This document shows, piece by piece, positions 42,001 through 45,000 of a stretch of 64,000 bases of DNA (the first letter of the stretch is position 1; the number at the start of each line of letters is the position of its first letter). The stretch is from IMG/VR virus record IMGVR_UViG_2811995276_000001; one strand, 5' to 3'. The position numbers were made by a program. The DNA comes from a virus (taxonomy: Duplodnaviria > Heunggongvirae > Uroviricota > Caudoviricetes).

Positions 42001-45000
42001 GTTAGAAGAAGAAAATGAGCGCCTTAAAATGCAGTTAGAGAACTTAGAATTAAAGTTAAAACGTAAGTACTAATAATAAATTAGTTATCAATAATTGATT
42101 AATTATGAGGGTGTGATAAATTTTGCTGGTCTATGATGGGAACTTAGAGGAGCAAGGTGTTAAGACAGAATTTACTAAATCGGCTCCTAGAAAATGGACT
42201 AAAGAAGAAGAGGAATGGATTGTGGAGAAGAAGCTAAAAGGCCATTCTGTTAGTGAGATTGCAAAAGCTTTAAATAGAACAGAAGTTTCAATTTCAATTA
42301 AGTTAAAAAGGCTTAAGAAGAGAACTGAAACAAATACATATAATGAACATCACTTGGAAGAAAAATATGGAATGAACTCTAAGGTAGCGAGTGAATTACC
42401 TAAAAATGCAAGAGTATTAGACCTATTTTGCGGAGTTAATTCTTATTGGAAGAATACATATAACGATTTTAAAGTAACAACAAATGATAAAGACAAGACT
42501 ATCGATGCAGATTACAACATGGATGCGCATAAGTTAATATGCAAGCTTTATTCAGAAGGTCATAAGTATGATTTTATTGATTTAGATCCATTTGGTAGTG
42601 CATACGACTGTTTTGATTTAGCTATTAAAATGGCTAAAAAGGGACTATACATAACATTTGGTGAGATAGGGCATAAGCGTTGGAACAGATTAGATTATGT
42701 TTCGAAAAGATACGACATAAAAAGCTTAGATGAATTTAATCTTGAAAAGCTTATAGAGAAGGTAATGCTTCTAGGATTACGTAATAAAAAGACATTGAAG
42801 CCTAAATACATAGGAGAATATAGAAATATATCAAGAGTTTATTTTGAGATAAGTGATTATAAAGAAACGTCTCAATGGGTTGGTTAGCTCTTAAATAGAA
42901 TTCACATTAGATTATACATAAGTTTTTGATAATAGAAAGGATAAAATATAACATGTGCAATGATAAGAAAATAGTATACATGGCTGGACATATTTTAAAT
43001 GAAGCCATGGTTGATTACAGAGAGAAGCAACATAAGCAAGTATCAGAAATTAAAGGAGTAGCTCCTTATTCGCCACATCAAGATAAATCAATTAATGATA
43101 AGTCAAATGCCGTTCAAGAGGGATTGGCTGAAAGAATTTTAAAGAATGATTTTAAAGCGATTGAGCAATCAGATATCTATGTGTTCGATGTATTGAATGA
43201 GGGTTTGGGCACTATTGCAGAGCTAGGTATTGTTCTGGGAATGAAACAACATGCTAAAGAAACTATTAAACAGCTAGAAGATAGTGCTGATACAGTTGCA
43301 TTTGATTTCGAAGGTAACCTTACAGATTCGTATTATAATTTAATGGATGAAGTTGAATATCATAAAGCTATTCTCGATAAGCCAGTACTCTGTTATTGCT
43401 CAGATATTAGACAGGGGCACGGCAAGCCTTATAACGATCCTGACAGAGCGGAATATAGTACTAACCAGTTTGTTTATGGAATGGTATTAGAACTAACTAA
43501 TGGAGAAGGTTTTATTAGCTGGGAAGAAACTTTAAATAGGCTAGAAGATTTTGGAAATTAGTTAATCTTAATAATCATCATGAGATGAAGTTGATTATAA
43601 CTTGTAGTAAGTATTGCTTGATAAAAACGAATAAATTTTACTTTTATCCTCATTATGTATAGCTTGATATGAGGTTGAGGCATACTTATCTATCTCACAG
43701 TAATTCAAGACTTCTAAGTCATATCCTAAATTCTTAATTGCTGTTTCTGGTGCCCCTATACCAGAAAATAAACTTAACATTTTAACTTTTTTCAAATAAG
43801 CTCTCTCCTTGAATCCTAAGTATTTATATCATTGTCATGATAAAAGTAAAAATTTATTGGATGTAAGAGATGTTGACGGGACTATGTTCAAAGATATTGA
43901 TTTACTTTTCCATGGATCTCCATGTCAATCGTTCAGCACGGTAGGCAAACAAGAAGGTGGGGATAAAGACAGTGGGACAAAATCCTCTCTTATGTGGGAA
44001 ACAGTTAGGATTGTAAATGAATGTAGACCTAAGATTGTAATCTGGGAAAATGTTAAAGGAGTACTGAATAAGAAACATAAACATAATTTTGATACATACA
44101 TAAAAGAGTTAGAAGATATTGGTTATAAATCTACGTATAAGGTGATATCTCCCAGGGATATTGGAGAGGCGCAAAGTAGACCAAGGGTGTTTGTAGTAAG
44201 CACGATTAAAGGACAGTTTGAGTTTCCAAATATTGTGAAAAGCTATCAAAAATGCATATCGGACTATATGGAAACTATTGTAGACCCAAAATACATATTG
44301 CCTAAAAATATTGCAGAAACACTGGCATACGGTAATCCCAATTTTTGTGGACGCATGACAATTTTGAGGCATACAGATTTAGCTGGTTGTTTAGTAGCCA
44401 AAAGCGGTAGGGCTGCTAGAACTAATAATTTCCTACTTTATCAGCATGAGGATTACTCTAAAATGTCTAATGCCAAAGATATACGGTTTTTACTGCAAAA
44501 TAATGTACCTATTAGAAGTTTAACACCTCTTGAATATTGGAGACTTCAAGGGTTCAATGATGAGCAATTTTATATAGCACGTAAAGCGCTAGCAGATACA
44601 TATAAAAATGGAAACTTATCATTAACAGATGCTCAATTATATAAACAAGCTGGAAATTCTATTAATGTTAAGGTATTAGAAAGCTTTATTGACAAAGTTT
44701 TAAAAACACTATATTAAGATAAAATATAATATGTAAAATGGAGGGTTTTTATGAATAAAAATATTCCCGTATCTGGAAGTAATTTTATTATTCCAGAAAA
44801 TGAGTTTACAGCTACTAATATGAATAAATACACAAAGAAATGTATTGAAGATAAGTACACTAATGATATTAAAAATATCAACCGTAAAATTCAAGAAGCC
44901 GCAAAAGAAGGTAAATTTAGTATACAAATCAGAGGCAATGAGGATGATTTTAAATTAATCAGTATCTATTATTTAGAACGTTATTTCAAGATTGAATTCA

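Follow-up and report, generated by a model that had tools for sequence, protein, structure and literature searches.

A gene in the 64,000-nucleotide stretch of viral DNA analysed here (IMG/VR record IMGVR_UViG_2811995276_000001, Caudoviricetes; the whole stretch is referred to below as the window) encodes a distant, pared-down relative of the catalytic domain of Trm1, the tRNA guanine26-N2 dimethyltransferase, fused to an N-terminal helix-turn-helix (HTH) domain. The protein has the Trm1-type fold with intact catalytic and S-adenosylmethionine (SAM)-binding motifs, it belongs to a phage family, and the genes of this family cluster with those of canonical DNA methyltransferases. We consider it an even prospect that the gene product is an active SAM-dependent amino-methyltransferase acting on the bases of double-stranded DNA, an orphan DNA-modification enzyme of a temperate phage. 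Its biological role might be to protect phage DNA from host nucleases or to mark that DNA epigenetically.

Trm1 ranked first for the window protein in sequence-profile comparison as well as with two structure methods, and the fold of the Trm1-type catalytic domain was confirmed. In the AlphaFold2 model built on the family alignment (mean predicted local distance difference test score, pLDDT, 85.6), a helix at residues 75-89 follows a linker and leads into a compact methyltransferase domain of the Rossmann type, whose last element is the strand 6/7 hairpin. The sole methyltransferase family matched in Pfam was TRM (PF02005), at 25.9 bits against a cut-off of 27 and over residues 129-176. Despite this weak score the match is not a chance one, because PF02005 is matched at E<0.01 by all 33 aligned members of the family, none of which matches any other methyltransferase family, and because three relatives exceed the cut-off (P0197 with 36.7 bits, P0206 with 40.3 and P0266 with 28.9) and reach profile positions 52-236. 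An earlier sequence-only reading had proposed just this arrangement, a Trm1-like core reduced to its Rossmann domain behind an N-terminal HTH, and both the profiles and the fold model support it; no unrelated methyltransferase family was matched in Pfam. Alignment with hhalign against four archaeal Trm1 proteins gave 96% probability over 32 columns around DPFGS, a span that does not establish full-length sequence homology, so that the relation to Trm1 is carried by the fold evidence. These four references came from the five archaeal Trm1-like genes (L077-L081) that were recovered in a scan of genome contigs, where the strictness of the search patterns accounts for the small number of loci. Among the viral structures of BFVD the protein found generic methyltransferases alone, at a template modelling (TM) score of ~0.45, and in PADLOC it matched no defence-system or methyltransferase model.

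Conservation within the family is concentrated where catalysis would require it. Mean column identity in the 33-member alignment is ~54%, motifs I (LDxxxG), II (ND), III (D134-A135) and IV (DLDPFGS) are invariant or nearly so, and motifs I-IV are retained in representatives that are 25-50% identical to the window protein. Within motif IV, D155, P156, G158 and S159 are invariant and F157 is conserved in at least 90% of the sequences; the motif aligns with the DLDPFGS of Pyrococcus horikoshii Trm1 in a profile search of the PDB and with that of the archaeal Trm1 proteins in hhalign. The acidic residue of motif II would bind the ribose, by analogy with class I methyltransferases. The Y73-N74...H77...K81-Y82...N85 columns that precede the core are also invariant and are kept in divergent representatives; they may be the counterpart of the FYNP motif of Trm1, since the distance to motif I is similar, 26 residues in the window protein and 28 in Trm1. 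Judging from these motifs, the core possesses all the elements required to bind SAM and to methylate an amino group. A conserved and strongly basic loop, GHKRWKR (residues 183-189), lies next to the active site and suggests a nucleic-acid substrate. This loop, together with the invariance of the catalytic DPFGS, which goes beyond the SAM-binding residues, makes it quite improbable that the protein is chiefly a transcription factor with its methyltransferase-like domain serving as a SAM sensor, or that it methylates proteins or small molecules.

The N-terminal domain points in another direction from that of the tRNA enzyme. Residues 18-68 are predicted to form three helices (27-38, 43-50 and 54-68 in the AlphaFold2 model) and have sub-threshold Pfam matches to Sigma70_r4_2, HTH_38, HTH_23, GerE, GcrA, HTH_7 and Myb, a match to phrog_323 ('transcriptional regulator'), an NCBIfam match to the HTH model of the CRISPR DNA repeat-binding protein Cbp1 (E 0.0068), and weak matches in the PDB profile search to 2lvs_A (E 0.0035; a 105-residue 'putative uncharacterized protein') and to the DNA-binding domains of NarL and GcrA. 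Relative P0266 exceeds the cut-offs for both Myb_DNA-binding (28.0 bits against 24.4) and TRM. The sequence-only reading had called the domain Myb/SANT-like, a label that is acceptable, but the spread of matches is better described by a generic three-helix HTH of the Myb/GcrA/sigma-r4 type. Each of the families that the domain appears to resemble binds duplex DNA. Five other proteins of 406-914 residues (P0213, P0228, P0260, P0263 and P0270) carry 5-11 tandem copies of an HTH of the same type, with matches to HTH_38, HTH_23, GcrA and Myb.

The protein is not a Trm1 orthologue, because the C-terminal domain of ~120 residues is absent and because the equivalog threshold of TIGR00308 is missed widely (a weak alignment over residues 126-244, 20 bits against 280.65). 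These two features also bear on whether the substrate is RNA. A phage RNA guanine-N2 methyltransferase, which would apply Trm1 chemistry to host or phage tRNA or rRNA, e.g. to protect tRNAs against the nucleases of defence systems or to adjust translation, with the HTH as an RNA-binding or regulatory addition, is the main alternative, though we think it rather unlikely. It would account well for the top rank of Trm1 in both kinds of search, for the invariance of the Trm1-specific DPFGS motif, and for the next-best folds, which are all RNA methyltransferases and include several RsmD-like enzymes that form N2-methylguanosine (m2G). It accords less well with the loss of the C-terminal domain, which in Trm1 holds the tRNA, with the shortfall against TIGR00308, or with an added domain that matches double-stranded DNA-binding HTH families only.

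The surroundings of the gene in related genomes bear on the same choice. Open reading frames (ORFs) were called in 45 loci, a set from which redundancy had been removed at 80% identity. Neighbours within two genes of a family member and at least 110 residues long, 96 in all from 44 loci (the Staphylococcus hyicus locus L001 being left out), were then scanned against Pfam. The commonest families were C5 DNA_methylase (5) and HTH_36 (5), followed by N6_N4_Mtase (4), NinG (3), Toprim primases (3), Mom (2) and ParB_N (2, at least one of them a ParB-N6_N4 fusion). When phmmer seeds for C5 and N6_N4 enzymes were used, one or the other gene was present in the flank of 18 of the 45 loci, and such genes made up 10 of the 175 genes at most two positions away against 10 of the 781 located farther off (Fisher odds ratio 4.7, p=0.001). 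The search for tRNA genes found none in the window and one among 36 related loci. The Mom-family genes, which are for DNA modification, are divided between two loci, and in one locus a near neighbour, also within two genes, encodes a Thg1-like tRNA-His guanylyltransferase, which would suit an RNA substrate.

We favour DNA as the target because the tRNA-binding domain has been lost and a DNA-binding domain gained, because the gene is located in replication modules and clusters significantly with canonical DNA methyltransferases, and because tRNA genes are unassociated with it; there is also the precedent of tRNA-modification families that have been redeployed on phage DNA. The location in modules of DNA replication and modification, beside DNA methyltransferases, and the lack of association with tRNA genes tell against an RNA substrate as well. 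The preference for DNA over tRNA in the sequence-only reading, drawn there from the HTH, is thus favoured by genomic context, and its alternative of tRNA targeting found no evidence in the tRNA genes of the window and the 36 loci or in the domain content of the protein. Like the orphan DNA methyltransferases of phages the enzyme is phage-borne, has no linked restriction enzyme, and is encoded in an early or replication module alongside other methyltransferases. Three considerations weigh against a DNA substrate. The closest folds all belong to RNA enzymes; motif IV differs from the [DNS]-P-P-[YFW] of DNA amino-methyltransferases, and the protein matches none of the PF01555, PF02086, PF02384 and MT-A70 profiles; and the clustering with methyltransferase genes could reflect a hot-spot for accessory genes.

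If DNA is the substrate, the N-terminal three-helix HTH would dock on the duplex, either to recognise the target or, in the manner of M.SsoII, to bind an operator and autoregulate, and the flexible linker would give the minimal Trm1-type Rossmann domain the freedom to receive a base flipped out of the helix. In the pocket, the exocyclic amine would be hydrogen-bonded by the Asp of DPFGS while the Phe stacks against the base, and SAM would donate its methyl group to the exocyclic nitrogen. Candidate targets are the N2 of guanine, as for Trm1, and the N6 of adenine or N4 of cytosine, as for the known DNA amino-methyltransferases. To our knowledge, enzymatic methylation of DNA bases is confined to m6A, m4C and m5C, made by a small number of well-charted families. 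It seems to us unlikely that the members of the present family are the first enzymes in nature to methylate DNA at guanine N2, with the base chemistry of Trm1 kept and the HTH retargeting it to duplex DNA; N2-methyl-dG as an enzymatic DNA modification was not found in the literature searched, and we lowered our estimate because a methyl group in the minor groove is a less obvious anti-restriction device than are marks in the major groove.

A Y-family (IMS/UmuC/DinB-like) DNA polymerase gene is present in the window prophage, 16 kb away, and polymerases of this class are known for the bypass of N2-dG adducts. It was considered as a functional partner and dropped as evidence, because no such gene occurs in the flanks of any other family locus.

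The sequence-only reading regarded a Trm1 relative in a staphylococcal prophage as unexpected. The gene is real in that setting, but it is no one-off, since a word-indexed search yielded 638 relatives and the family thus has at least 638 proteins (the best 120 are nearly all of 233-303 residues), with members encoded on 63 IMG/VR viral contigs. An exhaustive profile search returned 1573 proteins at E<=0.001, with ~250 clusters (50% identity) for E<1e-10 and 88 for E<1e-30. The loci examined lie in early or replication modules of temperate phages of ~43 kb, among genes for repressors, integrases or serine recombinases, recombination proteins, primases and thymidylate synthases, and also on one SPbeta-like contig of 135 kb. 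Two long relatives, P0197 and P0206 (646-700 residues), have C-terminal regions without a Pfam match, which therefore offer no functional hint. In tblastn, the window protein and the divergent relative P0121 were run against 50,697 genome records of deposited phages and matched none of them, an absence that is real for both queries because a positive control, the neighbouring gene discussed below, matched 513 records of the same collection; so far, the Trm1-like family is known from prophages and metagenomes only. Members 46-53% identical to the staphylococcal protein occur on short contigs of metagenome-assembled genomes (MAGs) assigned to Methanosphaera (L073), Chitinophagales (L074) and Flavobacterium (L075), and their binning to an archaeon and to Bacteroidota means either that the host range is very broad or that phage contigs were placed in the wrong bins. 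Literature searches on Trm1-like enzymes of phages, on phage proteins with PF02005 and on the methylomes of S. hyicus turned up nothing of relevance; matches to 'Trm1' were set aside, as they actually concerned Trm112, Trm11 or Trm14.

The Trm1-like ORF and the motif strings quoted for it in the sequence-only reading were both confirmed in translation (Table 1). A protein 97% identical to it is encoded in the 2.58 Mb S. hyicus chromosome CP170225.1 (locus L001), where the gene order is that of the window: metallophosphatase, Pol III alpha, ATP-dependent ligase, SNase and small ORFs precede the Trm1-like gene, and nucleoside 2-deoxyribosyltransferase (NDT), Dcm, Band_7, Gp157, NrdI, NrdE and NrdF follow it. 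The identical protein occurs on at least 24 contigs, and in S. hyicus and Staphylococcus agnetis its NCBI label is 'hypothetical protein'. The window element looks like a large SPbeta-like prophage, because genes for Pol III alpha, ribonucleotide reductase (RNR), ligase, the Y-family polymerase and a large serine recombinase are present; SPbeta-like prophages of staphylococci are mentioned in the literature. Scans of the window for regulatory signals gave nothing usable, as shuffled sequence contained more promoter-like sites than the window did and just two terminator-like sites were found, both on the minus strand.

Table 1. Positions of the Trm1-like gene, its parts and other features of the window
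Feature	Position	Strand	Remarks
Shine-Dalgarno-like GAGGGTG	42107..42113	+	9 nt 5' of the TTG start; read directly from the sequence
HTH-fused Trm1-like SAM methyltransferase gene	42123..42887	+	254 aa, TTG start
Three-helix HTH, residues 18-68 (PRKWTKEE...SISIKLKRLKK)	42174..42326	+	Myb/GcrA/sigma-70 region 4/LuxR-like
Linker and conserved helix with Y73-N74...H77...K81-Y82...N85 motif	42327..42404	+	linker, residues 69-73, of low confidence
Minimal Rossmann methyltransferase core, residues 95-254	42405..42884	+	
Motif I, SAM-binding loop VLDLFCGVNS	42411..42440	+	L99, D100, G104 invariant; cf. archaeal Trm1 LDATSATGIRG
Motif II, N121-D122, end of strand 2	42483..42488	+	invariant
Motif IV, D155-P156-F157-G158-S159	42585..42599	+	Trm1-type catalytic motif of amino-methyltransferases
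NDT-family gene	42953..43561	+	202 aa from ATG; longest ORF from TTG 42926, 211 aa
Short ORF, missing Dcm N terminus	43595..43795	-	includes motif I (FSGIGA)
Invertible segment (43649..43838) with inverted repeats AATAAATTTTACTTTTATC (43630-43648) and GATAAAAGTAAAAATTTATT (43839-43858)	43630..43858	.	OFF orientation in window
C5 methyltransferase ORF	43809..44717		
C5 cytosine DNA methyltransferase (Dcm) body	43839..44717	+	just past motif I to C terminus
Minus-strand cargo island	20374..24295	-	
Three trypsin-like serine proteases	20374..21195, 21440..22156, 22160..22909	-	possibly exfoliative-toxin or Spl-like
C3/EDIN-like ADP-ribosyltransferase exoenzyme	23549..24295	-	PF03496, 1e-55; adjoins protease genes
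Y-family (IMS/UmuC/DinB-like) DNA polymerase gene	25467..26726	+	
Ntox21 toxin-domain protein (27258..28007) adjoining subtilase-family peptidase (28004..28825)	27258..28825	-	
Class Ib RNR large subunit	48639..51896	+	1085 aa
Large serine recombinase (Resolvase and Recombinase domains)	56538..58097	+	519 aa
SdrG-like adhesin with YSIRK signal peptide	61104..63452	+	

The gene that follows was taken in the sequence-only reading to be of the NDT family, and this assignment holds: PF05014 is matched at 36.5 bits against a cut-off of 28.8 and phrog_1817 at 1.1e-79. Its GTIAELG segment we take to be the expected place of the catalytic Glu of the family; a single-query sequence search of the PDB with the protein gave no match. 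Homologues occur in 513 deposited phage records, 394 of them of Staphylococcus phages, and the NDT-family protein of the window is 50-73% identical to the NDT-like gene product of most of the large staphylococcal phages listed, with weaker matches at 31-46%. The same reading had also joined the Trm1-like, NDT and Dcm genes in one pathway, in which, for example, a methylated base or nucleoside might be exchanged by the NDT into deoxynucleosides for incorporation. The three genes are indeed consecutive and on the same strand, both in the window and in assemblies of S. hyicus and S. agnetis. In the 75 loci that have a member of the family, however, the NDT gene adjoins the Trm1-like gene only in this one S. 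hyicus prophage lineage and a Dcm homologue is present at just 8; the collection with 513 NDT-bearing phage records gave nothing in searches with two Trm1-like members; and a small-molecule enzyme would not need a DNA-binding HTH. The Trm1-like and NDT genes therefore do not travel together, and a shared pathway, largely refuted already by this unconserved linkage, strikes us as highly improbable. The NDT gene is a neighbour of the Trm1-like gene and not its functional partner.

The Dcm gene farther downstream was predicted to be switchable, and both of its states have now been seen. The Dcm body (Pfam DNA_methylase, 1.2e-48) is preceded in the window by a segment that is inverted relative to CP170225.1 between imperfect inverted repeats of 19/20 nt at the Dcm 5' end, and the inversion transfers to the minus strand the ribosome-binding site of Dcm together with its initial ~46 codons, motif I included. 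Dcm is intact, with 341 residues, in locus L001; among assemblies with an identical Trm1-like protein it is split in three (L082-L084, OFF) and intact, again with 341 residues, in a fourth (L085, ON). The switch is real and is a phenomenon separate from the Trm1-like enzyme.

Other cargo of the prophage may be recorded briefly (Table 1). The RNR large subunit of the window is interrupted by an intein (Intein_splicing at residues 390-765) that carries a homing endonuclease of the LAGLIDADG type (LAGLIDADG_3 at 610-703), and the counterpart of this subunit in L001 is 389 residues shorter, at 696 residues, with no intein or LAGLIDADG among its listed Pfam families. The large serine recombinase is probably the prophage integrase, the Ntox21 protein and the subtilase may form a secreted toxin or bacteriocin module, and the SdrG-like adhesin may mark the end of the prophage or be cargo.

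The interest of the Trm1-like enzymes lies in their being a large, phage-specific family, annotated as 'hypothetical', that combines an intact Trm1-type active site with a DNA-binding domain and resides in islands of DNA methyltransferase genes. If DNA is their substrate, they would represent at least a new lineage of DNA methyltransferases that current restriction-modification and methylome pipelines have overlooked, and if guanine-N2 specificity were kept on DNA, phages (and perhaps their lysogens) would contain a new natural DNA modification in the minor groove, N2-methyl-deoxyguanosine. If tRNA is the substrate, they would provide a rare case of a temperate phage that rewrites the tRNA modification of its host.

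The chemistry and the fold are of a known kind, that of the class I amino-methyltransferases of the Trm1 lineage, and no description of the combination of an HTH with a minimal core, of an exclusively phage distribution, or of the DNA-modification context was found in the literature searched. Trm1 itself (PF02005, TIGR00308; structures 2dul and 3axs/3axt) has a core of ~375 residues against ~180 here, with archaeal proteins of 372-378 residues against 254 for the whole window protein; it possesses a C-terminal tRNA-binding domain, whereas the window protein stops directly beyond strand 7, at residue 254, and Trm1 lacks the extra HTH that distinguishes the phage-borne bacterial form. With the orphan DNA methyltransferases of phages (C5 Dcm-type, N6_N4 beta-class, ParB-methyltransferase fusions and Mom) the window protein shares a niche, often an adjacent gene, a similar size and, presumably, the use of SAM and base flipping. 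It has no sequence or close fold relation to them, its motif IV reads DPFG in place of [DNS]PP[YFW] and, unlike them, it has in the HTH its sole recognisable candidate for a target-recognition domain. The domain order is that of methyltransferases of the M.SsoII and M.Ecl18kI type, in which an N-terminal HTH binds an operator and autoregulates transcription ahead of a catalytic methyltransferase domain; those are C5 cytosine enzymes of restriction-modification systems, whereas the present enzyme is Trm1-like and has no linked restriction gene. A parallel in concept is DpdA, where homologues in phages of the transglycosylase for tRNA guanine and of the queuosine pathway have been proven experimentally to modify DNA with 7-deazaguanines. 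There a family of tRNA-modification enzymes was recruited to phage DNA, as would be the case here if DNA is the substrate, although the chemistry of DpdA, a transglycosylation, is different and its fold is unrelated to that of the enzyme described here.

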